A DNA stretch of 64,000 nucleotides from a virus. Lineage: Duplodnaviria; Caudoviricetes. The first letter of the stretch is position 1, and the number at the start of each line of letters is the position of its first letter. The position numbers and the translations under genes were made by a program. The notes beneath the pieces were generated by a model, which searched no databases, was not told the origin of the DNA, and saw only the letters and a list, made by a program, of their open reading frames with translations. Where the stretch lies: positions 1-64,000 of IMG/VR virus record IMGVR_UViG_2565956830_000005; one strand, 5' to 3'. This document shows, piece by piece, positions 4,059 through 63,707 of the stretch.

Positions 4059-7000
4059 TCAGCGGTTGTACGGCGGGTACGTCAGGGGGTTGCGCATGCC
4101 GCGCTGCAGGAACGACTTCTCGACGTCCTTCGCCAGGCCGTCCACCGTGGCCACGCTGCCCTGGACCTGAAAGTGGAAGTGGTTGTGGGTGACGGCCCCA
4201 CCCCCTCCGGCGCCGGCCAGACCCAGGCCGGCGCCGGTGAACTGGCCCGCGCCGGTGACCGATCCGGCGAGGCGTCGCACGGCGCCGGCGGCGTGGTGCG
4301 CGTTGCGGTCGACACCCGCCGCGAGGCCTTTGGGGATCCACTGGCCGATGGACGCGAACACCTGCGAGGGCGACTTGATCTTGAGAGCCCGTTTGATCGC
4401 TGCGGCCATGACCTTGGCGATCCGAGTCATCTGCTTCTCGATCGCCTTTTCCTGGCTCTGGAGCCCCCTGACCAGTCCTTGCGCCGATTTGATGCCGGCC
4501 GAGTACATCGAGTCGGCGACCGCCTTGCCCGCCGACGTCGCTGCGGACTGGGTGGTCTTCTGCAGGGAGTTGATCTGCTGGATCTGCCCCTTCGACGCCC
4601 CCGCCAGGGCGGCCGCCGTCGCGCCGCCCGAGTCGACGCCGGCACTCGCGATCTGCTCGATCAGGGACGCGGACAGGCCCTTCTTCTTCAACGCCTGCAG
4701 CTGCGCGGCGAACTGCGTCGCTTTCTGCATCTGGTCGCGCATCTTGTTGACCACGTCGGCGGCCGTGAGCGCGAACCCCTCCTGCGGGGCGTCCGTCACG
4801 ATGGAGAAGCCCTGCATCACACCGGAGGCGACGTTCTTTACCTCGTCCGACCAGGACTTCTGCAACGCGGCGAGCTTCGACTGGGCGCTCTTGAGCTTCG
4901 CGGCGACCGAATCACGCTTGGCCGCGAGCCCTCGCATCAGGGAGTCTTCCTTGCGAGCGTACGACTCGAGGCGCTTGAGGGTCTTCTCGTGGGACTTCAC
5001 CCACTTGCTGCTGACGCCCTTGGTGCCCTTGAGGTCGGCGACCCGGTTGTAGGTCTGGGTCAGCAGCGACTCGACCCTCCGCGTCGCCGCCTTCACCCGG
5101 GCCGTCGACCCGGTGAGCCCGTCGACCAGGCCCTCGTTGACGTAGATGCCGAGCTGCCTGAACACCTTCGACGGCGAAGCGATTCCGAGGGTCCGCGCGA
5201 AACCGTCCGACGTCGCCTTGGCCGCCCCCTGCATGGTGGCCACGGCGCCCGGCGACCCGGCACGGATACCCTGGGCCAGGCCGTCCATCAGCGCATGACC
5301 GGAGTGCAGCGTCCACCCGCTGCCGGAGAACGGGCCCCATTCGGCCGGGCTGTGGGGGAACAGTCCGGAGACGTGGGACAGGACGCTGTGGGCCGCGTCG
5401 GCCACCGGGCCGAGCATCGATTTGATGCCGTTGAGGAAGCCCTTCAGCAGAGACCGGCCCGCCGAGTACAGGTAGGAGCCGAGCTGGCCGAGCGCCGCCT
5501 TGGCCCTACCCGGCAGGCTGCGGACCCACGTCACGGCTTCCATGGCCTTGGAGACCGTCGACGTCTTGAAGGAACGCCAGGCAGAAGCCGCCCGGGATGC
5601 GAGCCCGCTTCCGAGGCCGGCGAGCCAGTGGTAGATCCGCCCCGGCAGCCCCGCAACCCAGTTGACCAGGCTCGTCAGGACGTTGACGGTTCCGTGATAC
5701 ATCGACGACGCACCGGACTTGATCTTGTCCCAGTGCTTGACGATGTACAGGACCGCAAGCCCGATCGGCCCGGTCAGGATCGCCAGCAGCAGCGGCCAGT
5801 GGCCCTTGACCCAGTCGACGACCCAGCCGACCGCGTCAGCGATGCCCTTGAACGCCGTCTTGCAGAGATCCCGGAACCAGGCGACGTGGTTGTAGGCGTA
5901 GATCAGGCCCACCACCAGCGCCGCAATAGCCAGAACAACCAGGCCGAGCGGGCTGGCGGCCTGGGCCGCGTTGAGGAGCCACTGACCGATCGCAGCCGCC
6001 TTCTCGGCGATCGCCGCCCCGATCAGCTTCGCCTTCTCGATGGTCCAGGCGATCGCCGAGCGTGCTGCCGCGAGCGTGGCCCGGGCGACGTTCCGGGCGA
6101 GAGTGAGCGCGGCCCGGCCCGCCACCTTCATCGCGTTCCCAGCGGCCGTGACACCGCGGGCCATGCCCGCCCAAGCGGCACGCCCGGCCTTCGCTGCGGC
6201 CCCCGCGACGCTCCTGCCCATCCTGACGGCGGCCCGGCCCGTCGCGCTCAGCGCTCTGCCCGCGGCCCGGACGCTGCGGGTGAGGCCGGACATCGTGGCC
6301 CGGCCTGCCTTGGCCACCGCGCTCCCGATGCTCCGGCCGACGCCGGCGATGCCCCGGCCGGCCGCCTTGATGCCACGCACGGAGCCGTCGAAGCCCTTAC
6401 GCAGAGCGCCCCCGAAGCTCCCGGCCTTCCCGGAGAACGCCGAGCCGGCTACCTGCGCGGACCTGAAGCCCTGAACGACCCGGGCGGCACCCTTGGCGGC
6501 TCCCACGCCCATCTTCCCGAAGGCCACAACGGTCTTCCCGGCACTCATGGCGAGCTTCGCCGCGTAGGCGACCACCGAAAGGGCCAGGATGCCGCCGATG
6601 ACCCCGGCGAGAGCGGTAGCAGCGGTCTTGTGCTTCCCGAACCAGTCGACGATCTTGATGACGACGGGGAGGAGCTTCGTGCCGATCTCGATCGCCAGCA
6701 CGGAGATGGTCTGCTTCGCCTTGGCCAGCCGGACGTTGAACAGCTTCTGAGTGGCGTCCCAGCCCTCCACGTCTTTGCTGGCGTGGTTGAACGATCCACT
6801 GACCTTCTTGACGCGATCCTTGAAACCCTCGGTGTTCTCACCTGTCAACTGCAGGGTCGTATTCAGGCCGATGGCGCCACCGGTGAGCTTTTTAACCGCT
6901 TCAGTGTATGTCTGGGCGCTCGGTCCACCCTTTTTCAATTCAGCCGAAAAACCCTTGGTTTTATTTTGAAGGGTGGCGTACTGCGACAAAAGGTTCGCCT

Positions 7001-17194: not shown

Positions 17195-20100
17195 CTAAGA
17201 CGTCGTCACGGGCAGCAGGGCGCAGCGGCATGAGGGGTGGGCCGGTGGGAGCTGGTCGCCGCTGGGGAAGGAGTCGTTCAGGTCGAGTTCGCCGGCGGAC
17301 TCGTTGTCGACGCAGCGATCGCAGACCCGTGTGTCGGGCGAGACGAGCCACATCTTCTGCCGTACGCCGTTGGCCCGGTACGTGTTGAGGGTGGCGGTGG
17401 AGACGGCGCGGGCGATCTCGGTGACCGCGACGCGTTCGGCCCAGGCGGGGTCGGTCATCAGGTGGCTGATCGATACGGAGAGGGTGTCGGCGCTGTCGCC
17501 GCGGGCCAGTGCGTCGGACAGGACGTTGGCGAGCCGGTCCATGCGGGTGGCGGCCACGGAACGGATCGTCAGGCCGGCGTCGTCCAGGAGGTCCTGGAGG
17601 CCGTTGGTGGCGCCCCGGGCGGTGACCAGCCGGGCGGCGTCAGGGTCGCCGGGTGTCCATCCCGACCAGTCGACGGTGGAGTGGCCGGCCAGGACCGCGG
17701 TGGCCGTCCGTTCACCGATGACGTATCCGTCGACCCGCATGTCGTGGATGATCATCAGGGCGTCGATGAGCTGCGGGTCCTGTGCGGCGAGCCACGCCAG
17801 CGCGTTCGCCACCTGGTCAGGGTCGCGTCGTGCCGCCTTGGCCAACGTGCGTTGGGCGAGCCACTGTTCGGCGAGCGCGTGCGGGTCCAGGGCGTCCCGC
17901 ATGGCGTTGATCAGCAGTGGTTTCCAGTAGGCGACGGCCTTGAGGTCCTGGTGCCAGCCGGGCCAGCGTGCCCCGTCAGGGGCGTCCCCTTTTGGGCCGG
18001 TGGCCGCCTTGGCGATCCGGCGCATCTTGTCGCTGACCGTCTCCAGGTCGGCGTCGTGCCCCATCGAGCCGTCGGCGTGCTCCCAGCCGTTCGCCTCGTC
18101 GTAGCGGACCGGCGTCCCGCAGGGGCACGTCGACTCGTAGACGCCCTCCGCGGTGACGGTCACATCGGCAACACCCTGGAGCGCCCCTTCGCAGGGCACC
18201 GGCCCGGACCCCCCGAGCTGGCTGCCGGAGGCGTCGCAGTGGAGGCATTCGCAGCCGTTGCCGTGCTCCCCACTCCCCTCGCAGCAGGGGCAGGCGGCGA
18301 TCGCCTGCAGCACCGGCCCTAGGGCGTCGAGGAGTTCGGGCCGCACTGCCGGGTTGCCGACCAGCTGCGCGGGGTCCCACCAGGCGAGGGCCTCGATCAT
18401 GTCGCCGTCGGGGTCATCAGGGTTGGTGACGGCGTCGCGGCTGGTGAGGTCAAGGAGGGTCTCGGACGGGATGTCGTAGACGAAGCCCTGATAGATGCCG
18501 TGGGTCCAGCTCCGGCCGTTGCCGAAGGCGAGGGCGGCAACGACGTCGGGGACGAAGGGGAGGACGCAGCCGGTCTCCTCCTGCCACTCCCGGCAGGCGG
18601 CAGTCATCGGCCGCTCATCGCCTTCCATGTGACCGCCTGGGAACTCCCACATCCCGGACGCGGGATCGGTCGGGTCCAGGGCCCGCTGGAGCATGAGGAC
18701 GCGGCCGGTATCGGATGCGCGTACGGCGAGCCCGGCGACGGCGATCTCGCCGGCGTCCTTGCGGACCGCGAGACGGCCGGCGTCGTTGAGCCGGTGCGCC
18801 TGCACGGGGCCGACGGTGCGGAACTCGAAGTCACGCCATACCCGGTTGCGGCGGCGCGCCTGACGGAACCGGCGGAACGCGGCCAGCTCCCGTTTGAGGA
18901 GGTCCTCGGGCCGGTCGGCGACGTCCTCGCAGCCCTCCTGCCCCTCTTCCTCGTCGTGGTTCTTGTTACGGCCGACCAGGTCGTAGCCGGTCAGCCCCGT
19001 GCCGGCGGTGATGCCCGGCGCGGGCGCTCCGGCGTCCTTGGCCAACTGCGCGGGCCCCTGGGCGATTTGCCGCGCCTGAGTCTGGTAGGCGTCCTCCGCC
19101 GCGCGCGCGGCTGCCGCGTCGGCGGTTCCCGGTGCGGGCACGGTGGCGGGCGCCGCCACGAACGGCTGCGGGAGCGCGGGCTGGTCCTCGGCCGGGCCGA
19201 AGGTCTCCGGGTCGATACGTCCGGCGACACCCTGGATGGACAGCAGCGGGACCGGCCCGAGCCGGGAAGTCGAGTAGAACCGGGGCGTGGGCCGGTGCGG
19301 GTCCCCCGGCAAGCCGAGGAGTTTCTCGCGGCCCTCGTCGGGGCTGGCCATACCGGTATCGATGTAGACCTGCCACGCCTGGGCGAGTTCGAGGCGGTCC
19401 TCCTGCTCCTGCCCGGTGTCGAACGCGAACTGCAGGGGCAGCTCGAGGTCGTGGCGCAGAAAGTAGCTGAGGGCGCCCTGGATGTAGGAGATGAGGGGCA
19501 GGTCTCCGACGCGGTGCTGGACATCGGCCTGCGTCTCCCCGGAGGACCGGTTGACGGACTCTGTGAATCCAAGGTCGCTCGGCACGATGTGGTACGCCGC
19601 GCAGGTCTTCCGCATCAGGAACAGGGAGAAAGCGTCGGAAAACTCTTTCTCGTTCGACCACTCGATCTTCCCGCCGCCCGGCATCCACCGGATCTGGCTC
19701 TGGATCGACTGGTCGCCCAGCATGAGGGCGTCCCACTGCACCTGGAACTGATCGATCTGCTCCGGGGTCCAGCCCTCCGGGGCACTCGCGAAGGCACGCG
19801 GGATGTTGCCGTCGGTGAACCGCTGAAGGAAGTACTGCTGGAACCTCAAGTCCGTGTTCGCGTTGAGGAGGATGCTCTCCAAGGGCGCGGTGCCGTACGG
19901 GGAGCTGGTGCGCGGCCTAAACGGCTCATAGATGAGGTCGGAGCGGGTCAGCCAGTTCCACGGCAGACCGTTGACGTACTGGACATAGGCCTCGGCCGGG
20001 TCCTCCGGGCTGTTGCCCCAGTAGTCCAGGAGCGGCGCGATGGTGGTCCCGTCCACGGTCCGCAGCCCGATCGCGCGGCCGCCGCGGTTCCGCAGCCGGT

Positions 20101-20560
20101 ACAGGCAGCCGGCGTCGAACGCCAACACGTCGTACAACCACTTGGCCAGCCACGTCGCGAACGGCGTCTGCCGGTCCGGCTTCTCGAGAACCTTCATCCC
20201 GAGGTCGATCGCCGCCTGCGCGTCCCCCCTGAATCCGGGCGCGGGGACGAGGGACCACTCCAGCGCACGGATCGAGTCGATCCGGTGCCAGATGCACATC
20301 TGCGCCACGTCGTAGGCGTCGACGAGGCCCTTGAGCGTCTCGAAGCTGACGCGCTCGTGGGACTTCGGGCGGGCGCTGATGTTGTAGCCGGTGACGAAAT
20401 CATGGGTTCGCGGGGTGCGGGAGTAGCCGTCGTAGGGGCCGATCGGGGTGCCGGGTGAGAAGGGGCTCGCCGGGGTCATCTGAGCCGCTGCTTCGGCGGC
20501 CTGTGTCTCGGCCGGTACGCGGTTGGCGAAGACCTTGGCGAGGGTGGATCGGAGACCCAT
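17195..20560 (-). CDS. portal protein fused to Nudix hydrolase, Cys-rich domain and MuF minor head domain
   Basis: Portal core ('YGTAPLE', 'AYHIVPSDLG'); Nudix box GGHMEGDERPMTAACREWQEETG; CPCC..CLHC; C-terminal MuF 'VCDRC...PPAHPSCRC'. Confidence 0.88.
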   Translation of the reverse strand: MGLRSTLAKVFANRVPAETQAAEAAAQMTPASPFSPGTPIGPYDGYSRTPRTHDFVTGYNISARPKSHERVSFETLKGLVDAYDVAQMCIWHRIDSIRALEWSLVPAPGFRGDAQAAIDLGMKVLEKPDRQTPFATWLAKWLYDVLAFDAGCLYRLRNRGGRAIGLRTVDGTTIAPLLDYWGNSPEDPAEAYVQYVNGLPWNWLTRSDLIYEPFRPRTSSPYGTAPLESILLNANTDLRFQQYFLQRFTDGNIPRAFASAPEGWTPEQIDQFQVQWDALMLGDQSIQSQIRWMPGGGKIEWSNEKEFSDAFSLFLMRKTCAAYHIVPSDLGFTESVNRSSGETQADVQHRVGDLPLISYIQGALSYFLRHDLELPLQFAFDTGQEQEDRLELAQAWQVYIDTGMASPDEGREKLLGLPGDPHRPTPRFYSTSRLGPVPLLSIQGVAGRIDPETFGPAEDQPALPQPFVAAPATVPAPGTADAAAARAAEDAYQTQARQIAQGPAQLAKDAGAPAPGITAGTGLTGYDLVGRNKNHDEEEGQEGCEDVADRPEDLLKRELAAFRRFRQARRRNRVWRDFEFRTVGPVQAHRLNDAGRLAVRKDAGEIAVAGLAVRASDTGRVLMLQRALDPTDPASGMWEFPGGHMEGDERPMTAACREWQEETGCVLPFVPDVVAALAFGNGRSWTHGIYQGFVYDIPSETLLDLTSRDAVTNPDDPDGDMIEALAWWDPAQLVGNPAVRPELLDALGPVLQAIAACPCCEGSGEHGNGCECLHCDASGSQLGGSGPVPCEGALQGVADVTVTAEGVYESTCPCGTPVRYDEANGWEHADGSMGHDADLETVSDKMRRIAKAATGPKGDAPDGARWPGWHQDLKAVAYWKPLLINAMRDALDPHALAEQWLAQRTLAKAARRDPDQVANALAWLAAQDPQLIDALMIIHDMRVDGYVIGERTATAVLAGHSTVDWSGWTPGDPDAARLVTARGATNGLQDLLDDAGLTIRSVAATRMDRLANVLSDALARGDSADTLSVSISHLMTDPAWAERVAVTEIARAVSTATLNTYRANGVRQKMWLVSPDTRVCDRCVDNESAGELDLNDSFPSGDQLPPAHPSCRCALLPVTTS

Positions 20561-46536: not shown

Positions 46537-47321
46537 AGGCCACCGTCCTGGACCTCGTCGACGTCGCCACGCTCGTCCGCAACATCGGCGTCCCGCGCCT
46601 CGCCCATCTGCAGGACGTACTCGTCGGACGCACCGTGCCCATACCGGGCGTCGAGGTCGTCGGCCTCCAGGCAGATCGGGTGTCGGGCCTCAGTGGGTTC
46701 ATCCCACGGGGCAGTCAGCTCGATGCCGAAGATGGTCCGCAACTCGTCCTGCGACACCAGGTCCTGCGAGATGAGAGCCGGGGTACGGCCACGCTCCCAT
46801 CGCTGCCCGGACCGGAGCCGGACAACGAGCGCCGCGCGCTGCCCCTCCGACTCGGCGACCCGAGCTCGCGCCTCGCGCGCCTTCTCACACATCGCCATGC
46901 CCCGCTGGACCGCCTGCTTGTGCAGGCCGTCCAGCTCGGTAACCCGGTTGATGAGCCACTCCACAGCAGGAGTCAGCGTTTCCCCCAACTCCATGGGGAC
47001 CTTGCTCGCCTCCCCGTTCGGCGAGAGCGCGCCGCGCATGTTCAGCGCATCGTTCTGAAGGGCTACGAGACGGGCATGGCGCCGATCGCGCTGCGCCTCC
47101 AGGCGGCGGATCTCCGCCACCAGCGCGGGCACGTCGTCCCCCGCCAGCCGGTTCCACTCGTCAGCAGTGGCGTCGCCGCCGAACTCGTACAGATGGGCCC
47201 CACGCTCCTCAGCCTCCGCGAGACGCCCTGCCGACAGCGCCTGCGGCTCCTGGCCCACGGGCATCGGCAGCGCACCCAACGCGAGCACTGCGGCCTCAGT
47301 GGTCTTGAGTGGTTCGGTCAC
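46533..47321 (-). CDS. coiled-coil hypothetical protein
   Basis: 'DVPALVAEIRRL' motif common in actinophage proteins. Confidence 0.55.
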   Translation of the reverse strand: MTEPLKTTEAAVLALGALPMPVGQEPQALSAGRLAEAEERGAHLYEFGGDATADEWNRLAGDDVPALVAEIRRLEAQRDRRHARLVALQNDALNMRGALSPNGEASKVPMELGETLTPAVEWLINRVTELDGLHKQAVQRGMAMCEKAREARARVAESEGQRAALVVRLRSGQRWERGRTPALISQDLVSQDELRTIFGIELTAPWDEPTEARHPICLEADDLDARYGHGASDEYVLQMGEARDADVADERGDVDEVQDGGL

Positions 47322-47902
47322 AGTCCACCGTCCAGTTCGGCACGGTGGTCGGCTGCGGCGAGTTCGTCACCGGCGCGGGCGAGCGCGTTGGAGACGCACA
47401 TCGGGGTGCAGTACCAGCTCGGTTGGTCCCCGGTGCCGGCGACTTCCAGGCGCGCCCACGCGAAGAGGGCCGGGTCGCTGGCGTCGCAGTCATCGGTGGT
47501 GCCGCACCCCGGGGTGGAGCACTTCGCGTACGGGTCGCGGAGCTCCATGTCCAGGAGGGAGGCGAGCTTGATCCGCTGTTCGCCCTTGACGACCAGGTCG
47601 ACGGTGACGCCCTGGAAGGCGTGGCTGCAGTCGATGACGGCTTTCTGGGTGAGGTCGCTGCCGTCCGGGTACGACACGCTCCCGGCCCAGTCCAGGGTGA
47701 TCGTGAGCGGGTCGGAGTCCAGCGCCCATTCGCGCAGGAGATCAACGGCGTTGCCGCGGCCCGGGTCGCACTCGTAGTCCTGGGGCAGCGCGGTGATCTT
47801 GTCGGCGGCGTGGGTGAGGATGCCGAACCTGACCGCGGCTGCGATCGTCCGCCGCATCTCCTGCTGAGGTTCGGTGAGTTCGGTGTCGGGTGTGTGGTTC
47901 AC
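47318..47902 (-). CDS. hypothetical protein with Cys motifs
   Basis: CSTPGC, YCTPMC. Confidence 0.55.
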   Translation of the reverse strand: MNHTPDTELTEPQQEMRRTIAAAVRFGILTHAADKITALPQDYECDPGRGNAVDLLREWALDSDPLTITLDWAGSVSYPDGSDLTQKAVIDCSHAFQGVTVDLVVKGEQRIKLASLLDMELRDPYAKCSTPGCGTTDDCDASDPALFAWARLEVAGTGDQPSWYCTPMCVSNALARAGDELAAADHRAELDGGL

Positions 47903-47926
47903 AGGCGTGGTGCTCCCTGGTGAGGG

Positions 47927-48283
47927 TCAGATGTGGTCGCCGACGCGGGTACGGCTCCACCGGGTGTGGGTCACGCACAGGGGCCGGCCACTGGACAGCC
48001 GCAGCTCCCAGCAGGCGGCGGCGTGGTGCGAGACGTGGCGGGTGCCGGCGCGGACGTCGCGGCACGTCGTGGTGGTGCGGGTCTTCTTGCCGCTGCGCCG
48101 GGTCTTCGTCTTGCACACGTGCCGGTAGCGGGTCTGCGTCGTCCAGGTCGTGCGCGCCGCCTGGTAGGTCTTGGCAACGACTTGGCCGTGCACGGGGCGG
48201 CTCACCGTGGTGGTGCCGCAGGCGGTGAGCGCGAGGGCGACGGCGGTGAGGACTGCGCCGAGCGCGGCGAGGGTGCGGCTCAT
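47927..48283 (-). CDS. basic lipoprotein
   Basis: MSRTLAALGAVLTAVALA-LTAC lipobox; four further Cys; R/K/T-rich. Confidence 0.7.
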   Translation of the reverse strand: MSRTLAALGAVLTAVALALTACGTTTVSRPVHGQVVAKTYQAARTTWTTQTRYRHVCKTKTRRSGKKTRTTTTCRDVRAGTRHVSHHAAACWELRLSSGRPLCVTHTRWSRTRVGDHI

Positions 48284-48858
48284 GCCGAGTACTGCTTCGC
48301 GAGCTGGAGGAGCTGGTCGCGGCTGCCGGCGTTGTCGAGTTCGTTGACGGCGGTGATCGCCCAGTCGCTGCCGGTGCGCTGCGCGCGGGCCATGACGCAC
48401 GCGTTGTTGTGGGAGTCGATGTCCGGCATGTATTCGCCGAGCTTCCGGCCGCCCGGGGCGCCGTCGTAGACGTTGAGGGTGATGCCCTCGATGTTGGCGA
48501 AGCTGACGCCGGGCTTGAAGGCGGAGACGATGAAGACGAGGGTGTTGATGCTGGCGGGGAGGTCGGTCAGGCGGGCGATGATGGTCTCGTCGTCTCCGGT
48601 GGCCTTCCCGGTGCGGTTGTCGCCGAGGGTGACCAGGGAGCCGTTGTCGAAGGCGTCCTCGTTGTCGAACCAGCACAGCCGCTTCGGGCGCCCGTCCTCC
48701 AGGGCGACGGCGACCAGGTCGAGGTCGGTACCGACCGCACGGCGCAGGCGCCCCATGAGGCCCTTCTGTCCTCCGCCGGACGTCTTCCACGCGACTCCGA
48801 CCCTCAGGACGGTGACGCCGGTGAGGCCTTCGGTCTGGTTCTTCAGCAGGCTGAGCAC
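48280..48858 (-). CDS. TerD-family stress protein
   Basis: 'RVGVAW...TDLDL...LGDNRTGKATGDDETI..LTDLP..I..LVFIVS' TerD signature. Confidence 0.88.
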   Translation of the reverse strand: MLSLLKNQTEGLTGVTVLRVGVAWKTSGGGQKGLMGRLRRAVGTDLDLVAVALEDGRPKRLCWFDNEDAFDNGSLVTLGDNRTGKATGDDETIIARLTDLPASINTLVFIVSAFKPGVSFANIEGITLNVYDGAPGGRKLGEYMPDIDSHNNACVMARAQRTGSDWAITAVNELDNAGSRDQLLQLAKQYSA

Positions 48859-48923
48859 GTTGTTCTCCGAACGGTTGGTGAGTACGGCGCTGGGTGCGCC
48901 TGGTGGAGGGGGCGGGGTGGGGG

Positions 48924-50297
48924 TCAGCGGCGTAGGACGGCGAGTTGGAGCGTGTCCTCGGTCCGGGGGTCGAGCAGCTGCGCGGTGGGCAGCGCAGCCG
49001 TGGCGTCGGACTCGGGCACTGGTACGGGCTCCAGGCGCGCCGTGTCGGCGGTGTGCTCGCCACGGGCGGTGCCGGTCCCGGTGGCGCGGCGGGTGCCGGT
49101 GCCGCGGAGGCGGATGCGGATCATGGACAGCGGGATCACGACGAAGGCCGTGGCGCCTCCAGCCCACAGGAGCGGGTTGCCGAGGAGGCCGCCCGCGAGG
49201 CTGACGAGGGTTCCCGCGGCCGCGCCGACGAGCGCCAGGCCCCGGCGGCGTTCCCGCGTCATGGGGCTGATGACGGTCTTGCGCCCGCTGCGGCCGGTCC
49301 ACGCCGTGTAGTGGCGTCCCAGCAGCCACTCGCGGAGCATCGACCGCGTGTACAGGTACTTGTTGTAGAAGTTCAGCAGCGTGTACGGCACGAAGCCGAG
49401 CGCGGCTTTCTTCCAGCCGACGACGCGGGAGACCAGGTACATGGTCAGCGCGGTGTGGCCGGCGAACCAGTAGCCCATGTACCGGAACATCGACAGGTGC
49501 TGCCAGGTCGCCAGGTTGTAGACCACGACGACGGCCCACCACCACAACGTGACCAGGTCGAACATCGCGGTACCGACAGTGAGGAGGGAGCGCCAGTTGA
49601 ACATCAGGCGCCGGTAGCGGGCGACGTTCTGGAAGTAGCCGGCCGCCCACCGGGGCATCTGCGCCGTGTACTCGGCCCAGGTCTCCGGGTCGATCGTGAG
49701 CGTCAGGGCATCCGCGGTGTACCAGGCCTTGTAGCCGCCTTCGTGGAGCTTCCAGGTGATGTCCATGTCGGCGCTGATGAGCCCGTTGGGAAACCCGCCG
49801 ACCGCACGGACGACGTCCGTGCGGAAGGCGTACGAGGCGCCGGTGAGGACCTGGAGGCGGCCGACCTGGCGCTGGCACAGCCGCCACCACTGGCTGCCGA
49901 GGCTGTACGCGAACCGCCGCGCTTCGATGAAGAAGCCGGTGTCCTGCATGGGAAGGATCGACGAGCAGGTGGCGTCGTAGCCGCGCTCGATGTCGGCGAC
50001 CATCAGCGGGATGCAGTCGGGCTCCGGCTTCGAATCGCCGTCGAACCCCACGATCACATCCGCCGTGATGTACGGCAGCGCATGGTTCTGGTTCGCCGCC
50101 TTGTCCGCGAACCTCGTCTCCAAAACCAGCGACGCACCCGCCTCACGGGCAACCTGCGCGGTGCGGTCCGTGCAGGAGTCCGCGACCACGATCAGCTGGG
50201 CGACTGGGTAGGGCTGGTCCAGGCATGCCCGGACCAGCTCCCCGATCGTCGCCTCTTCCTGGTGGGCGGGAATGAGGACGGCGATCGTCAGACTCAG
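48924..50297 (-). CDS. processive GT2 membrane glycosyltransferase (polysaccharide synthase-like)
   Basis: 'VLIPAHQE', DSCTD, DGD, 'SADMDIT', QMPRW (QxxRW) and C-terminal TM helices; probable CTG start overlapping the upstream TGA (ORF open to 50441). Confidence 0.85.
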   Translation of the reverse strand: MSLTIAVLIPAHQEEATIGELVRACLDQPYPVAQLIVVADSCTDRTAQVAREAGASLVLETRFADKAANQNHALPYITADVIVGFDGDSKPEPDCIPLMVADIERGYDATCSSILPMQDTGFFIEARRFAYSLGSQWWRLCQRQVGRLQVLTGASYAFRTDVVRAVGGFPNGLISADMDITWKLHEGGYKAWYTADALTLTIDPETWAEYTAQMPRWAAGYFQNVARYRRLMFNWRSLLTVGTAMFDLVTLWWWAVVVVYNLATWQHLSMFRYMGYWFAGHTALTMYLVSRVVGWKKAALGFVPYTLLNFYNKYLYTRSMLREWLLGRHYTAWTGRSGRKTVISPMTRERRRGLALVGAAAGTLVSLAGGLLGNPLLWAGGATAFVVIPLSMIRIRLRGTGTRRATGTGTARGEHTADTARLEPVPVPESDATAALPTAQLLDPRTEDTLQLAVLRR

Positions 50298-50410
50298 CCC
50301 CGGCCTCTCCTTCCGAGGAAGCGCAGGGCGCTCCCGGTGGCCCCCATCGCCAGGGACACCCCGGTCAGGAGCATCGCTCCGAACCCGGTGTGAGCCAGTC
50401 CGTTGTACAT
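50294..50410 (-). CDS. 38-aa LAXTG sortase-signal peptide (not in the ORF track)
   Basis: AGGAGG RBS; MYNG-LAHTG-FGAMLLTGVSLAMGATGSALRFL-GRRGRG. Confidence 0.75.
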   Translation of the reverse strand: MYNGLAHTGFGAMLLTGVSLAMGATGSALRFLGRRGRG

Positions 50411-50437
50411 GTGAGTTCCTCCTATGAGTCACGGCCG

Positions 50438-51700
50438 TCACAGCCGCTCGATGTGCGAGGCGACAGGCATGACGCCCCGCGTGTCCAGCACGAAGTTCGC
50501 CTGGTCGGCGACGCGCTGGAGGTCAAAGGCCGAGTGCGCGGTGAGCAGCACGACCGCGTCGAAGTGCCCGCAGTTCAAACCGCTGGCGACGGCGAGCGGG
50601 ATCTCGCAGAGAACGTCGAGGTCTTCCTTGGGGAAGAACGGGTCAACGGCGACGACGTAGGCGCCCGCCTCCCGCAGGAGCTCGACGACCTCGGCAGCCG
50701 GCGACTGCCGCATGTCAGCGGTGTCCGCCTTGTACGCCTGCCCCAGGGCGAGGATCCGCGCCCCCTTCAACGCCTGCCCGCGCACGTTCAACGCGTCCTG
50801 GAGGCGCCGGGCCACGTACTCGGGCTGCGACTCGTTGATGTCCTGCGCAAGCTCGACAAGGCGAAACGGCTGCCCGTGCGCAGTGCGCAGGTGGTGCGCC
50901 AGGTAGACCGGGTCGACCGGCAGGCAGTGCCCACCTACCCCCGGGCCGGGCACGAACTGCATGAACCCGAACGGCTTCGTGCCAGCGAGCCCGAGAGTGC
51001 GCCAGACGTCCACACCCAACGTGTGCGCCATGCGCGACAGTTCGTTGACGAGGGCGATGTTGACGTGCCGGAAGGTGTTCTCGAAAACCTTCGCCAGCTC
51101 CGCCTCCTCCAGCGACCCGGCGACGACGATGTTCTGCGTGATCCCGGTGTAGAACTTGTCGACCTGGTCCAGGCAGCCAGCGGTGAGCCCGGAGACGATC
51201 TTCGGGGTGTTCGTGAACCGCCACTCCTCGTTGCCCGGGTCGATGCGCTCCGGGCTGAACCCGACGTGGAAGTCCTCCCCGGCCTTCCAGCCGGTGGCCT
51301 CCTCCAGGATCGGGACCAGAACGTCGCGGGTCGTACCCGGGTGGGTGGTCGATTCCAGGATCACGGTGGCGTCGGCCTTGAGACGCGCGCCGAGAACCTC
51401 GGCGGCCTCCCGGACGTAACTCAGGTCGGGCTGCCGATCCTTGAGCGGCGTCGGCACCGCGATGACCGCGACGTCGAAGTCCTCGATCCGGGTCTCACTG
51501 CGCGTCGGCTGGTACCGCCCCGACTCCAGAGCAGCCGCGAGAGTGTCGTCGGAGACGTCCTCGACGTACGAGGACCCGAAGTGCAGCCGCTCATACCGGT
51601 GTTGGTCCGGCTCGAAGCCGACAACCTGATGGCCGGCCTCAACGGCAGCCATGGCCAGGGGAAGGCCGACATAGCCCTGCCCCATGACAACGAGTTTCAC
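50438..51700 (-). CDS. UDP-N-acetylhexosamine 6-dehydrogenase (nucleotide sugar dehydrogenase)
   Basis: GQGYVG Rossmann motif, 'VPTP', 'LESTTHPGTT', 'SPERIDPG', 'GPGVGGHCLPVDP', 'YKADTADMRQSP'. Confidence 0.93.
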   Translation of the reverse strand: MKLVVMGQGYVGLPLAMAAVEAGHQVVGFEPDQHRYERLHFGSSYVEDVSDDTLAAALESGRYQPTRSETRIEDFDVAVIAVPTPLKDRQPDLSYVREAAEVLGARLKADATVILESTTHPGTTRDVLVPILEEATGWKAGEDFHVGFSPERIDPGNEEWRFTNTPKIVSGLTAGCLDQVDKFYTGITQNIVVAGSLEEAELAKVFENTFRHVNIALVNELSRMAHTLGVDVWRTLGLAGTKPFGFMQFVPGPGVGGHCLPVDPVYLAHHLRTAHGQPFRLVELAQDINESQPEYVARRLQDALNVRGQALKGARILALGQAYKADTADMRQSPAAEVVELLREAGAYVVAVDPFFPKEDLDVLCEIPLAVASGLNCGHFDAVVLLTAHSAFDLQRVADQANFVLDTRGVMPVASHIERL

Positions 51701-51796
51701 GTGAAGGATTCCCTTCCAGGGACGTGCATTCAGAAGTGGCTTGGAGCCGGGCCCGCGGCTGGGGGAGGCACACGGGCCCGGCGTATTTGGGGGCGG

Positions 51797-51979
51797 CTAC
51801 CAGGGCCAGCGCGGCTTCTTGCCGCCACCACCCCTGAGCTCCGCGCGGTGCCGGGCACGGCGGTCGGCTGCCTCACGGGCCTCGCGCTGTTGCTTGCGGG
51901 CGGCCTTGTCCCGGTCCGCAATGCCCGGATTCGACGCGTACGGGTTGGCGGCCTTCAACCGCCGCTCAAGCCAGCCCAT
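51797..51979 (-). CDS. small basic protein
   Basis: 60 aa, TGATG coupling. Confidence 0.45.
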   Translation of the reverse strand: MGWLERRLKAANPYASNPGIADRDKAARKQQREAREAADRRARHRAELRGGGGKKPRWPW

Positions 51980-52362
51980 CAAGCGGCCGCACGCATCAAC
52001 GGCAACTGCTCACGGGAGCCGAACTTCGCCAGGCCCTCATACCAGTCGGTGAACACCTCGACCGGGCCCACACCGTCCACCAGAACCGTGACGGTGATCT
52101 CCTCCTCCACCACCACACTGCTGTCGCAGTAGGTCCGCTGGACGGGGCGGATGGTCACCGTGCCGCCGAGCCGCTCGTACAGGCTGTTCAGCTCAAGCTG
52201 CGACCAGACGGACACACGGGTGAGGGACTCACCCAACTCAGGAACGGGCTTCCAATGGCCGGCGAACCCGAGGGCCGTCCGGACCTTGGCGAGCAGCTGC
52301 TCGTCCGGGACTGCGGGCGGTGGGAGTTCGACGAGGTTGAGAGGGTCGGTAGTCTCGGGCAT
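51979..52362 (-). CDS. hypothetical protein, first gene of the leftward operon
   Basis: GAAAGGG RBS, MPETTDPL... Confidence 0.55.
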   Translation of the reverse strand: MPETTDPLNLVELPPPAVPDEQLLAKVRTALGFAGHWKPVPELGESLTRVSVWSQLELNSLYERLGGTVTIRPVQRTYCDSSVVVEEEITVTVLVDGVGPVEVFTDWYEGLAKFGSREQLPLMRAAA

Positions 52363-52393
52363 TGCCTGCCCTTTCGTCGCAGTCAGGGTGGGT

Positions 52394-52439
52394 GCCCTCG
52401 TCCCATACGGCGTTCCAGCGCCGGGACGAGGGCCTTTTT
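52394..52439 (+). terminator. stem-loop with T tract
   Basis: GCCCTCGTCCC...GGGACGAGGGC-CTTTTT. Confidence 0.5.
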
Positions 52440-52451
52440 GCAGAGCAGCCA

Positions 52452-52508
52452 GCGGGCTACTTGCGGCTGACTGTATGGGACCCATACAGTCAGCCGCAAG
52501 TAGCCCGC
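52452..52508. promoter_or_regulatory. perfect 57-bp palindrome: divergent promoter/operator
   Basis: 28-bp arms GCGGGCTACTTGCGGCTGACTGTATGGG / CCCATACAGTCAGCCGCAAGTAGCCCGC around one A; lies between divergent genes. Confidence 0.8.
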
Positions 52509-52528
52509 CTGAATTGGAAGGCGCGGGC

Positions 52529-52879
52529 GTGACTCACGAAGACGAGGTGCTGCGGGTGTCAGAAGCCCTCAACGCTGTGGAGCGCATCCCTGACCCCGAG
52601 GAGCGCGTCAAGGCGATGAGCCAGGTCATGGCCGACCAGGTGAAACGCAACGGGGATTGGGCCAAGCAGCGACGCGAGATGGTCCAGAAACTCAAGGGCG
52701 AAGGGCTTTCGATCCGGAAGATCGCGGCCCGGGTCGGTACGTCACCCAGCACGGTGCAGAGCATCCTGAGCGGCTTCACCGACTCGGGCAAGCACCGGCC
52801 GCCGACGAAGCCGGACGATCCTGCACCCCCAGCCGACGCAGCCCAAGGAACAGACAATGGCGCCGGCCCAGGCACCTGA
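52529..52879 (+). CDS. HTH transcriptional regulator
   Basis: 'RREMVQKLKGEGLSIRKIAARVGTSPSTVQSIL'. Confidence 0.78.
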   Translation: MTHEDEVLRVSEALNAVERIPDPEERVKAMSQVMADQVKRNGDWAKQRREMVQKLKGEGLSIRKIAARVGTSPSTVQSILSGFTDSGKHRPPTKPDDPAPPADAAQGTDNGAGPGT

Positions 52880-57146: not shown

Positions 57147-57947
57147 TCACTGTTCCTGGGGGTCTGGGGTGGTGGGGCTCAACGTCGGTAGCGGCGGGAC
57201 TACTTGGGCGAGCCAGCTGGTGGGTTCTGTCGTGAAGTGGGGTGCTGGGCTGCTCTCCCACCACGACCTGGTGGCGAGGACCGTGTTTTCGGTGCTGGTG
57301 CGTTTGTCGGTGTACGTCGTCTCCCGCTCGCCGAGGTGGCGCACGGTGACGCGTCCGCGTTTGCAGCCGTCGGGGTAGTCGCTCCAGTTCACGCCTTTCT
57401 CGGACCACAGCAGTTCCTGCATGCCGGCGCTGTTCACGCCGTGGAGGCGTTGGTGGGAGAAGTGGGCCTGGGCGGCCATGCTGATGCTGTTGCTGACGGC
57501 GTCGCGTTGCCGTCCGATGAAGTAGTTCGCGACCTCGACCGGGTCGTTGATGGTGAAGACGCGGGCGTCGAAGAGTCCTCGTCGGCCGGGGCGGCGTTCG
57601 TTGAGGACGGCGGTCGCGAGGGATGCGGCGATGCTGAGCTGTTTCGCGATGACGCCGCCGAACCAGGGCTGCGTGGTGGGGGTGTCGAAGTCGGTGATCA
57701 GGATGCTGATTTCGTCGGACTGGCTGTAAGCGAAGCGGGCGCCGGCGATCTCGGTGCAGAGGGCTTCGGCGACGGCGTCCATGTCGGCCATGAACGCCTC
57801 GTCGAACGGCCGCTGCGCGCCGGCCAGGTAGGAGTGGAAGGCGCGGCCGTCGACGCGGAGTACGGCGTGTGTGCGGCGGGGCAGCACAGTCCGATAGGGG
57901 GCCTCGTACTGCTTCATGCGCTCGGCGAGCGGGGCGTTGTCGCTCAT
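57147..57947 (-). CDS. thg1: tRNA(His) guanylyltransferase Thg1-like protein
   Basis: 'RMKQYE...LRVDGRAFHSY...AYSQSDEISIL...FGG...K..SIAAS...FDARVF...YF..RQRDA..NSI'. Confidence 0.92.
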   Translation of the reverse strand: MSDNAPLAERMKQYEAPYRTVLPRRTHAVLRVDGRAFHSYLAGAQRPFDEAFMADMDAVAEALCTEIAGARFAYSQSDEISILITDFDTPTTQPWFGGVIAKQLSIAASLATAVLNERRPGRRGLFDARVFTINDPVEVANYFIGRQRDAVSNSISMAAQAHFSHQRLHGVNSAGMQELLWSEKGVNWSDYPDGCKRGRVTVRHLGERETTYTDKRTSTENTVLATRSWWESSPAPHFTTEPTSWLAQVVPPLPTLSPTTPDPQEQ

Positions 57948-62380: not shown

Positions 62381-62790
62381 TGCTGACCTCCGTCGTCGAT
62401 CGTGCGGGCTGTAGCGAGCGCGGCTTCGTCGCGGTGGCGAGCCTTCGCCTGGAGGTGGTCGTAGTTGACCGCGCGGGCCAGGACGAGAGCGGGTTCGTCG
62501 GCGCTCACTTCGGTGCCGTCGAGGGCATCGGCGGTCTGGTCGAGGAGCTTGGCGAGGGCGCGGCCGACGCCGGGGTGCATGGCGCAGATGTACTGGGCAT
62601 CGGTCGGCTCGTGGTGGGGGTCGGTGGTGGTGCTGGCGACGCGGTACGGGACGCCGATGTTGCTGATGGTCTGCGGGTAGTGGCGTGCCTGTTCGTTGAC
62701 GATGTACCAGGGGCCGCGGTTGTCGCCGAGCGCCTGGACGAGGTCGTCCAGCTTGGCTGCCGCGGCACGGATCTCTTCGGTAGGTGTCAT
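62377..62790 (-). CDS. hypothetical protein (paralogue of the ligase C-terminal domain)
   Basis: 'TPTEEIRAAAAKL...GPW...YICAMHPGVGRALAKLL'. Confidence 0.55.
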   Translation of the reverse strand: MTPTEEIRAAAAKLDDLVQALGDNRGPWYIVNEQARHYPQTISNIGVPYRVASTTTDPHHEPTDAQYICAMHPGVGRALAKLLDQTADALDGTEVSADEPALVLARAVNYDHLQAKARHRDEAALATARTIDDGGQQ

Positions 62791-63707
62791 CGCTGCTCGC
62801 CGCCCAGGACGATGCGCGCGAGGGCGATGGTGGGGTCGATGACGGGATGGCCGGGCGCGCCGCTGCCGTGTTCCGTGTGGTCGGCGGTCTCCTCCAAGAG
62901 CTTGGCCAGCGCGCGCCCGACGCCGGGGTGCATGGCCGCGATGTAGTCGGCGTTCGCTCCGTTACTCATGGGCTCGTCGACGACGTACACGGGCGCCCGG
63001 TCCTCTGCGCCGGGGCCGTCGTGGAGGAGGCGGTCGCCTCGGTCCATGGAGAGCCAGGGGCCGGGTGTGAGTTCGGGGTCGGCGAGGCGCGCTCGCAACT
63101 TGCGGGCTGCCGTGCGGAGTTCGTCGGCAGGGCTGACCGGGTGCGGGGTGGCGAAGTCGCGCGCCTTGATCTTTGCGCGGCGGCCGTCGGGGTGATGCCA
63201 CACGATGCCCTCGTACGGGCGGGTGAGGAGCCACTCGCGGAGGCCGTCGAAGTCGCGCGGGGCGGCCTCCACGTCGATGCGCTCGGACAGGGGCGCCCAT
63301 CCGTGGGGCATGAGGAGGTGTGCGTCGAAGCCGTCCGCGTTGCGGTTGATTTTCGGGCCGAGGAGTTCGTAGGTGCCGGGTGCGACGGCCGTGCTGTTGG
63401 TCAGCGCTTCGGCGTGGAGCTTGGCGAATGAGGACTGGGCCATTGGCTCCCAGCCGACGAGTTTCCCGGTCGCCTCGTCGTGCTGCGCGGTGACGAAGGA
63501 GTGCGGGATGTCCTTGCCGGGTTTGACTTCGCGGCGGGCCCACCAGTTGCCGTGCTCGTCGAGCATGGTGCAGGTGCCGTCCCACTTGCGGGTTGCGATG
63601 CCTTCGCCTGCGGTCACCCATTCGCAGCCCGGGGTGACGTCGGGCAGGACGGTACGGGGGCGGCCCAGGCGGAGGTCGCGGGCGAAGAGGGTCGGGATTT
63701 TGCGCAT
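62787..63707 (-). CDS. ATP-dependent RNA ligase-like nucleotidyltransferase (DUF5565/RLIG1-like) with C-terminal fusion
   Basis: Motif I 'TRKWDGTC', 'TYELLGPKIN', motif IV 'EGIVW', motif V 'KIK'. Confidence 0.75.
   Translation of the reverse strand: MRKIPTLFARDLRLGRPRTVLPDVTPGCEWVTAGEGIATRKWDGTCTMLDEHGNWWARREVKPGKDIPHSFVTAQHDEATGKLVGWEPMAQSSFAKLHAEALTNSTAVAPGTYELLGPKINRNADGFDAHLLMPHGWAPLSERIDVEAAPRDFDGLREWLLTRPYEGIVWHHPDGRRAKIKARDFATPHPVSPADELRTAARKLRARLADPELTPGPWLSMDRGDRLLHDGPGAEDRAPVYVVDEPMSNGANADYIAAMHPGVGRALAKLLEETADHTEHGSGAPGHPVIDPTIALARIVLGGEQR

Follow-up and report, generated by a model that had tools for sequence, protein, structure and literature searches.

A 38-residue peptide with a sortase-type motif encoded together with a processive glycosyltransferase in a prophage

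The stretch of DNA analysed here, referred to as the window, comprises 64,000 nucleotides (positions 1 to 64,000 of the virus record IMGVR_UViG_2565956830_000005, Caudoviricetes) and represents the initial 64 kb of a contig 262,669 bp long in an 11.76-Mb genome, and it is therefore part of a prophage. It carries phage genes, including those of terminase, portal, tape-measure, and other PHROGs families, nearly all of which lie on one strand. Between the genes for a nucleotide diphosphate (NDP)-sugar 6-dehydrogenase and a processive membrane glycosyltransferase of family 2 (GT2) lies a short open reading frame (ORF), the mini-ORF, the 38-residue product of which combines a LAHTG pentapeptide, as found in the sorting signals of sortase substrates, with a hydrophobic helix and a basic tail. 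The mini-ORF is almost certainly a real, translated gene and the obligate partner of the GT2 clade to which its neighbour belongs.

Genes of the locus

The features of the locus, with the type of evidence in brackets, are as follows.

50438..51700, minus strand: NDP-sugar 6-dehydrogenase, 420 amino acids (aa) from GTG 51700, first gene of the conserved cassette (Pfam, TIGR03026)
50418..50423, minus strand: AGGAGG ribosome-binding site of the mini-ORF, 7 nt ahead of its ATG (sequence)
50294..50410, minus strand: mini-ORF, 38 aa, consisting of MYNG, LAHTG, one hydrophobic helix, and RRGRG (ORF, third-position composition, homologues)
50304..50314, minus strand: GGAAGGAGAGG, a site resembling a ribosome-binding site within the 3' end of the mini-ORF, 6 nt ahead of the GT2 CTG (sequence)
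48924..50297, minus strand: processive membrane GT2 synthase, 457 aa from CTG 50297 (Pfam, motifs, fold)
48280..48858, minus strand: TerD-domain protein, 192 aa (Pfam TerD, 63 bits; phrog_5698)
47927..48283, minus strand: putative lipoprotein, 118 aa, with a signal peptide ending in LTAC as judged by eye (sequence)

All genes from the dehydrogenase to the lipoprotein lie on the minus strand, in the order dehydrogenase, 27-nt gap, mini-ORF, GT2, 65-nt gap, TerD, and putative lipoprotein, with the start of the last overlapping the TerD stop. A promoter and terminator scan of positions 47200-52600 revealed nothing exceeding shuffled controls, and the putative lipoprotein matches no Pfam family.

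The mini-ORF, read from 50410 to 50294, encodes MYNGLAHTGFGAMLLTGVSLAMGATGSALRFLGRRGRG. A preliminary description, made from the letters of the window, had pointed to this unannotated ORF, its ribosome-binding site, and the overlap of its stop with the GT2 start, all of which were confirmed. The stop TGA (50296-50294) overlaps the opening CTG of the GT2 (50297-50295) as CTGA, and the frame carries G or C at the third codon position (GC3) in 33 of its 38 codons (87%), the corresponding values being 379 of 420 for the dehydrogenase and 425 of 457 for the body of the GT2. Upstream of the CTG, the GT2 frame offers just two canonical starts, GTG 50441 and GTG 50432, both within a stretch of low GC3. 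A GT2 start at either of these positions, which would extend the protein by 45-48 aa over the mini-ORF, was considered and rejected, as the extension from GTG 50441 reaches a GC3 of only 30/48 against 33/38 in the mini-ORF frame, and the GT2 of relatives starts at the mini-ORF stop. In most of the related loci printed, stop and start overlap as ATGA, GTGA, CTGA, or TGATG, the CTGA form being common to the window and its relatives L036-L038.

The GT2 matches the Pfam GT2 families, and its residues D40, D86xD88, D177, and Q213xxR216W217 are invariant in 29 sequences. Its best NCBIfam match is PgaC_IcaA (TIGR03937), at 92.2 bits against a cut-off of 422.3, with residues 4-268 aligned to positions 46-317 of 407, so the protein falls outside this equivalog with its N-terminal membrane segment. 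The alignment likewise begins at position 41 of the EpsU model, 50 of the XrtG-associated GT2 model, and 49 of the NodC model, and the GT2 opens directly at the first beta-strand of the catalytic domain. The profile positions absent from it, about 45 residues in the PgaC-, NodC-, and EpsU-type models, are presumably the N-terminal membrane helix. In a profile search of the PDB, BcsA ranks first (E 1e-24). An AlphaFold2 (AF2) model with a mean predicted local distance difference test (pLDDT) score of 79.9 displays a GT-A domain together with six helices (207-227, 235-264, 270-293, 295-325, 348-372, and 375-392), of which one, at the interface, bears QxxRW and the other five are long, and the top Foldseek matches are hyaluronan synthase (HAS), BcsA, and chitin synthases (8smn, 5ej1, and 7sp8; E 1e-14 to 1e-15, TM-score 0.47-0.57). 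The modelled fold is that of an HAS/BcsA-like processive synthase, and Pfam, the invariant motifs, and the AF2/Foldseek comparison agree with the processive GT2 with DxD, D, QxxRW, and transmembrane helices that had been read from the sequence beforehand.

The dehydrogenase contains three Pfam UDPG_MGDP_dh domains and exceeds the cut-off of TIGR03026 (388.4 bits against 189.8), which establishes it as an NDP-sugar dehydrogenase. Among the equivalog models, it scores 249 with uridine diphosphate (UDP)-N-acetylmannosamine (ManNAc) dehydrogenase, 225 with TviB, 214 with WecC, and 182 with UDP-glucose (Glc) dehydrogenase, all below cut-off. It is probably of the UDP-N-acetylhexosamine (HexNAc) type, because the best of these scores go to UDP-ManNAc and UDP-N-acetylglucosamine 6-dehydrogenases; the HexNAc specificity that the preliminary description had assigned to it is thus suggested by sub-threshold matches, and the general enzyme class stands. 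An acidic HexNAc-uronate polymer would be a plausible product of the cassette.

Conservation of the peptide with one synthase clade

Relatives of the GT2 were collected without reference to the peptide, and from a one-genome-per-species scan with the GT2 alignment, 80 of 175 relatives were taken into the locus counts. The loci are kin and not independent, so these counts overstate the number of events. The hidden Markov model (HMM) used in the locus search was built from the first peptides, that is, from members of the same set, the sequences being plainly alignable. With this HMM, a homologous ORF of 31-45 aa was identified just upstream of the GT2 in 78 of the 80 genome loci, and the two misses have 7 nt (L087) and 287 nt (L105) of upstream DNA; in a metagenome scan the ORF was present in 16 of 17 loci, the single miss having 4 nt of upstream DNA. 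The conservation of a short ORF beside GT2 homologues, which had been proposed as a check on the initial prediction, is thereby borne out.

Among 400 genomes sampled from the family, 14 of the 134 that belong to Kitasatospora hold a GT2 at 32-35% identity, and all 14 loci carry MYGLAHTG, a helix, and RR just upstream of the GT2 in another frame, while none of the 133 own-genus genomes of the sample holds a GT2 relative reaching E 1e-40. The mini-ORF is present in all three close Nocardioidaceae loci, and five Nocardioidaceae GT2 at 36-45% identity have none, and the pairing is therefore specific to one GT2 clade. Two of these Nocardioidaceae genomes, G1195 and G1238, are unpublished, and L196, among the three LPNTG peptides, and L200, among the five distant GT2 that lack the peptide, rest on them.

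A profile of 29 peptides was also compared with 1.84 billion representative proteins at E up to 0.001, yielding 93 clusters, of which 92 were kept after a spurious 868-aa multi-repeat match was dropped. One of the 92 is an ordinary secreted sortase substrate of 122 aa. The others measure 32-84 aa, with the match spanning the whole protein or its C-terminal end, and the longer calls look like over-extended starts; none of the 93 has the length of a GT2 fusion. In 64 of the 92 clusters, x-[A/P]-x-T-G stands directly ahead of the helix (the TG type), with L at position 1 in 63, P (43) or A (21) at position 2, and 12 different residues at position 3 (H 20, F 15, Y 7, N 6, T 4, V 4, and others). 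The motif is preceded by 1-6 residues in 62 of the 64, and the peptide starts with M-Y in 51 of them. The 28 non-TG clusters (LPFIG 10, LPVIG 5, LPIIG 4, PPTLG 3, and similar) include no M-Y start, and 23 of them start with M-H.

A tree of 81 GT2 sequences, obtained by a quick maximum-likelihood search with Shimodaira-Hasegawa-like approximate likelihood ratio test (SH-aLRT) support and a midpoint root used for drawing only, places the 25 TG-type rows on one side of a single branch (support 99). The 56 non-TG rows, from Nonomuraea, Actinomadura, Actinoallomurus, and some Streptomyces, form one clade (support 99). Four groups make up the TG side, namely a prophage clade (the window and L036-L041), Kitasatospora (12 rows), a Streptomyces chromosomal clade (5 rows), and a Nocardioidaceae metagenome-assembled genome. 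Under the midpoint root, with no outgroup in the tree, the TG state is ancestral and the non-TG clade derived, and the latter is the more variable of the two in the motif segment. In seven loci of a Streptomyces non-TG sub-clade (L068, L074, L103, L107, L111, L081, and L085, at about 4844-5100 in each), the mini-ORF does not terminate at the start of the GT2 but overruns the first 30-40 GT2 codons out of frame, giving proteins of 60-75 aa with His/Arg-rich tails. In five Nonomuraea/Actinomadura loci (L084, L086, L099, L105, and L113, upstream of 5001), a Pro/Thr-rich N-terminal extension of the GT2, 95-220 codons long, lies between the mini-ORF and the catalytic domain.

These comparisons bear on the suspicion that the ORF is an artefact, such as a frameshifted N-terminal helix of the GT2, a sequencing error, or a pseudogene, or that it is a purely regulatory upstream ORF of which the translation alone matters. 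Such a suspicion finds some footing in the stop-start overlap and the non-canonical CTG start, which probably make translation of the GT2 dependent on that of the mini-ORF, and in a run of G bases at the junction of the two genes. Yet the peptide occupies a separate frame or ORF at every locus examined, none of the 93 clusters is fused to the GT2, and the amino-acid motif is kept through synonymous change, the 15 nt that encode the LAHTG-type motif occurring in 16 distinct versions, in which each of the four Thr codons and each of the four Gly codons is represented. Synonymous change and separate ORFs across the loci together exclude a sequencing error or a split gene, and a frameshift or sequencing error dividing the N-terminal helix of the GT2 was accordingly rejected. 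As far as sequence data go, this explanation is already refuted, and we give it hardly any credence.

Within the prophage clade, the dehydrogenase lies upstream of the mini-ORF in all six related loci (L036-L041, 65-70% identity), and in L036-L038 further genes downstream of the cassette are shared with the window. The TerD and lipoprotein genes, by comparison, were found by tblastn in none of the 80 related loci; the conserved prophage unit is therefore dehydrogenase, peptide, and GT2. TerD and lipoprotein were rejected as cassette members and are neighbours in this prophage only: the preliminary description had named both, TerD passing its Pfam model and the LTAC signal peptide being recognizable by eye, but had counted them into a cassette to which they do not belong. 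No DNA nearly identical to the window was detected in the phage collection, and tblastn of the GT2 against phages yielded only matches below 30% identity over half of the protein. One viral contig with a GT2 75% identical ends inside the mini-ORF, yet displays the same junction, with an ATG start.

The closest LAHTG relative of the GT2, at 86% identity in a Streptomyces sp. (L040:5001-7235), is 745 aa long, as an insert of about 290 residues interrupts its GRHYA/WTGR segment; the insert begins with C-V-D-E and ends with H-N ahead of S-W-T-G, which gives it an intein-like look. Directly downstream of the cassette in the same locus (L040:7559-9097) lies a gene for a LytR-CpsA-Psr (LCP) glycopolymer transferase (Pfam 134 bits, TIGR00350 133 bits).

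The sortase-type motif and the role of the peptide

In the window peptide, LAHTG is followed by the hydrophobic span GFGAMLLTGVSLAMGATGSAL and the basic tail RFLGRRGRG, so the pentapeptide, the membrane span, and the positive tail of a sorting signal are all present. An N-terminal secretion signal and a passenger domain are absent, and only MYNG precedes the motif, exactly as first described. In six frames of the 64-kb window the mini-ORF is the sole L[AP]xTG signal with a membrane span and a basic tail. Judged from the alignments, the conservation of TG-type members, in which L, P/A, T, and G are fixed and x is free, is the pattern of an LPXTG signal. Position 2 of the motif follows host lineage, with Ala throughout the TG-type loci of Streptomyces and Kitasatospora and Pro in all three Nocardioidaceae loci. 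According to the accessible text of PMC5148588, class E sortases of soil actinobacteria use LAXTG.

Four genes of the host genome exceed the NCBIfam cut-off for class E sortases. A screen based on a regular expression (regex) and GC3, the tallies of which for signals and spacers are approximate, returned 23 candidate signals in this genome, including LAETG (9), LAHTG (5, the window peptide included), LAATG (3), and others, and no other among them has an upstream frame nearly as short as that of the window peptide. Of the 12 signals detected in a Kitasatospora genome, LAHTG accounts for 4, more than any other. In Kitasatospora, a class E sortase gene (212 bits against a cut-off of 160) is located some 1 kb upstream of the pair, and it is within 5 kb in 11 of 12 loci; in six frames of the 20-kb locus the mini-ORF is the sole sorting signal. 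In two Nocardioidaceae loci (L054 and L195), a sortase gene directly follows the GT2; the two sortases are 38% identical, and both peptides read LPNTG. No sortase gene occurs within 5 kb of the non-TG loci. The L054 peptide passes TIGR01167 (17.6 bits against a cut-off of 15.9); at E up to 0.01, a TIGR01167 search matched nothing in the genome of L054 and gave a single weak match in G1334. The peptide profile also picks up the C-terminal signals of ordinary proteins in 22 other genomes, verified by regex in 17 of 25 loci, and some family members are already labelled as LPXTG anchors by IMG and NCBI. The likeness to a Streptomyces class E signal noted at the outset thus holds, given the family-wide motif pattern, the LAHTG substrates of the host, and the adjacent sortases in two lineages.

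In Kitasatospora, a divergent gene between the class E sortase and the peptide (L025:8187-9032, minus strand) encodes a secreted protein of 282 aa. It contains, by eye, an E-L-D-L-F-E segment resembling the ExDxxE of glycoside hydrolase family 16, and it has no Pfam match; its weak match in the PDB (E 0.074) is a glycosyl hydrolase, and the protein may act on the polymer as a glycanase.

Taken together, the reading to which we give somewhat better than an even chance is that the mini-ORF encodes a micro-subunit of an HAS/BcsA-like synthase, one equipped in this prophage with a class E sortase signal as well. Its two parts differ in strength. That the peptide is a membrane subunit of the synthase is likely, whereas for sortase action on TG-type members, the window included, the balance tips only slightly in favour. 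The peptide would be a single-pass micro-protein with its N-terminus outward and its basic tail in the cytoplasm, forming an obligatory, translationally coupled partner in complex with a HAS/BcsA/PgaC-like processive GT2. It may supply in trans the N-terminal helix that the GT2 lacks, a suggestion based on the N-out, basic-tail-in peptide, which stops at the point where the GT2 sets in. In the family's older branches, including the prophage, the exoplasmic M-Y-x-L-[A/P]-x-T-G would act as a sorting signal without cargo, and recognition by a host class E sortase would couple the synthase or its product to the wall-anchoring machinery; no sortase gene lies within the 64-kb window, and any processing of the peptide must therefore use host enzymes. 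Chemically, the N-terminal 8 residues, either bare or bearing glycan, might be transferred to peptidoglycan or the polymer; alternatively, a cleavage might regulate the synthase. Dehydrogenase, peptide, and GT2 of the prophage would together make a uronic-acid-containing surface polymer on the lysogen, and the cassette might serve receptor masking or superinfection exclusion.

Several observations weigh against the sortase part of this reading. Sortase cleaves after the Thr of its signal, and 28 of the 92 clusters and 56 of the 81 tree rows have no Thr (LPFIG, LPVIG, PPTLG, MPGLG), although the segment is still conserved in them, so a structural role could explain the whole motif; LPFIG, for instance, is conserved across the non-TG members of Streptomyces and Actinoallomurus. 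The window peptide matches no Pfam or PHROGs model and, at E up to 1, no NCBIfam model, TIGR01167 included. In five of seven prophage-clade sequences the motif reads MAHTG rather than LAHTG, and the spacer between motif and helix measures 0-2 residues in 56 of 63 mini-proteins, against mostly 3-6 in 19 ordinary host signals. Neither the prophage clade nor the Streptomyces chromosomal clade has an adjacent sortase gene; L116, which is more closely related to L054 than any other locus, has LPGPG as its motif and no sortase within the 620 nt of downstream DNA present; and one Kitasatospora locus (L048) has the pair without a sortase. Moreover, the split between TG and non-TG types is a single change on the tree, and the correlations with Tyr2 and with sortase adjacency amount to few independent events. 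Across the glnA-glnE interval of 34 further Kitasatospora genomes, 20 hold neither sortase nor pair, 5 the sortase alone, 3 the sortase with the pair or its remnants, and 1 the neighbour gene with a distant GT2, and 5 are otherwise uninformative. In Kitasatospora, an association of sortase and pair thus exists at a single variable locus, but the two are separable, as 5 of the 34 intervals hold the sortase without the pair.

In two of these intervals (L133 and L134), the sortase and the 282-aa neighbour are kept beside a GT2 remnant of 113-150 aa, with no recognizable mini-ORF, which looks like decay of the pair next to an intact sortase.

Much of this evidence would equally suit a peptide that is purely an accessory subunit, a structural helix with a role like that of PgaD or IcaD, in which [L/M/P]-[P/A]-x-[T/I/L/V]-G caps the outer end of the helix, the likeness to a sortase signal is fortuitous, and no cut ever takes place. 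Beyond the missing polar spacer, the failure in TIGR01167, the MAHTG variants, and the prophage without a sortase gene, the side chains of Thr, Ile, and Val each have a beta-branch, and a single base separates LPFTG from LPFIG. A loss of Thr in hosts without sortases was tried as an explanation and rejected, as all five non-TG hosts tested have 3-7 sortase genes; because the non-TG clade keeps the peptide even so, the core role with the GT2 needs no cleavage. An accessory subunit had been mentioned at first only as a fallback and, with a peptide that persists in the 56-row clade without Thr, it has become the best-supported part of the initial interpretation. A role confined to this function nevertheless accords less well with the TG-type members, in which four of five positions are fixed and x takes 12 residues, a pattern of a recognition site rather than of a packing surface. 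It also leaves aside that Pro versus Ala tracks host lineage, that a sortase gene adjoins the pair in Kitasatospora and immediately follows the GT2 in two genomes of Nocardioidaceae, and that the non-TG clade is derived under midpoint rooting and more variable in the segment. We regard it as a rather unlikely account of the peptide, although one to be taken seriously.

The preliminary description had gone further and proposed that the peptide is a primer or carrier, for instance through Tyr2, on which the GT2 builds an acidic polysaccharide, whereupon sortase cuts between T and G and links the peptide-glycan to peptidoglycan, coating the wall of the lysogen. All the evidence for a sortase signal applies to this proposal as well, and a signal without cargo would be sensible if the cargo were added after translation. 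Tyr2, present in 51 of 64 TG-type and none of 28 non-TG clusters, is lost together with Thr, although this joint loss is a single event on the tree. The LCP gene following the cassette in L040 also fits, as does the Actinomyces oris LcpA/GspA precedent, in which, according to the accessible text of PMC6381275, a glycan is placed on a sortase substrate before wall anchoring. Set against these points, no glycan-bearing residue is universal, as MPSGAMAHTG, MTHNGSLAHTG, and MGSGAGLPFTG have no Tyr2, and the active site of the GT2 is cytoplasmic in all solved relatives, whereas the N-terminus of the peptide is expected outside. We know of no processive GT2 synthase that uses a protein primer, and we consider the proposal improbable. 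A variant in which the mini-peptide is an adaptor, the synthase building or holding the polymer on exoplasmic residues and sortase cutting between T and G to join peptide-glycan to peptidoglycan or peptide to a glycan amine, is an equally long shot. The observations of the preliminary description were thus confirmed, and its interpretation is supported in part.

Comparison with known systems and further observations

Each part of the cassette resembles something known, namely a sortase signal, an HAS/BcsA-like synthase, a small synthase subunit, and a has-like dehydrogenase. Sortases are known to anchor proteins and pili, and processive GT2 synthases to release or loosely hold their polymers. 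The peptides share with established sorting signals (LPXTG, or LAXTG as for Streptomyces coelicolor SrtE1; TIGR01167/PF00746) the L-[P/A]-x-T-G motif, the hydrophobic helix, and the basic tail, as well as Ala in Streptomycetaceae as in the host's own substrates. They differ in having no signal peptide or passenger, in a motif touching the helix, in the constant pairing with a GT2, and in the existence of a derived clade without Thr.

Hyaluronan synthase is paired with a UDP-sugar dehydrogenase in streptococcal hasA/hasB and in Chlorella viruses, in which the dehydrogenase is viral too. The present system is similar in its top fold matches (8smn and 7sp8, TM-score about 0.5-0.57), its adjacent dehydrogenase, and its being carried by a virus, and it differs in a dehydrogenase that scores better on UDP-HexNAc than on UDP-Glc models. 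Solved HAS enzymes have N-terminal helices of their own, and we know of no peptide partner or sortase motif in HAS systems.

The PgaD/PgaC and IcaD/IcaA synthases of poly-N-acetylglucosamine likewise consist of a small membrane protein co-encoded with a PgaC/IcaA-like GT2, and Escherichia coli PgaCD is described in the accessible text of bioRxiv 10.1101/2021.10.13.464265 as a glycosyltransferase complex. No sequence relation of the mini-ORF peptides to PgaD or IcaD was found (no Pfam or NCBIfam match), so the resemblance is one of role only, and the peptides differ in having one helix and 31-45 aa, in being encoded upstream with translational coupling, and in their sortase-type motif. In the actinobacterium Actinomyces oris, the GspA-LcpA-SrtA system (PMC6381275, accessible text) similarly links a glycan, a sortase substrate, and the wall; however, the substrate there, GspA, is secreted and full-size rather than a micro-protein paired with a GT2, and an LCP enzyme, not a processive synthase, supplies its glycan. 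Exosortase/PEP-CTERM systems in exopolysaccharide loci are comparable in that a sorting transpeptidase is genetically tied to polysaccharide synthesis, and the GT2 of the window weakly matches the XrtG/XrtP-associated GT2 models (TIGR03111 and NF053846). PorU of the type IX secretion system joins protein to glycan (anionic lipopolysaccharide) by a sortase-like mechanism, according to the accessible text of PMC4560394 and PMC1569441. Both of these involve unrelated enzymes, other signals, full-size substrates, and Gram-negative or other lineages.

No published description of a cargo-less sorting signal as a dedicated partner of a polysaccharide synthase was found in a literature search covering sources outside most subscription journals. 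A conserved signal of this kind, found solely as a synthase partner, suggests that the sortase and synthase machineries are connected, and if this is true, it bears on how some Gram-positive bacteria fix or regulate exopolysaccharides made by such synthases. Should the peptide act as an adaptor, it would represent a third route for the attachment of wall glycopolymers beside LCP enzymes and lipid anchors, and a temperate Streptomyces phage with a minimal version of it would use host sortase to re-coat its lysogen. If sortase is uninvolved, the peptides would still constitute an unannotated micro-protein family and the apparent missing subunit of a widespread actinobacterial synthase clade, which matters for the expression and study of these enzymes. 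With its three genes, the prophage cassette itself is compact enough to offer a ready test system in laboratory Streptomyces strains, and it is a candidate module for lysogenic conversion, by which the cell surface would be altered.

Two further regions of the window, both on the minus strand, were recorded in passing. A tRNA-His guanylyltransferase-like protein (57150-57947; phrog_4717, E 6e-67) and an RNA ligase (62790-63707; phrog_14301, E 6e-46) are encoded in the prophage, which suggests a tRNA repair or counter-defence module. At 17198-20479, a single ORF of 1094 aa combines PHROG matches to a portal (28-393), a NUDIX-like domain (579-641), and a MuF-like minor head protein (about 970-1092).

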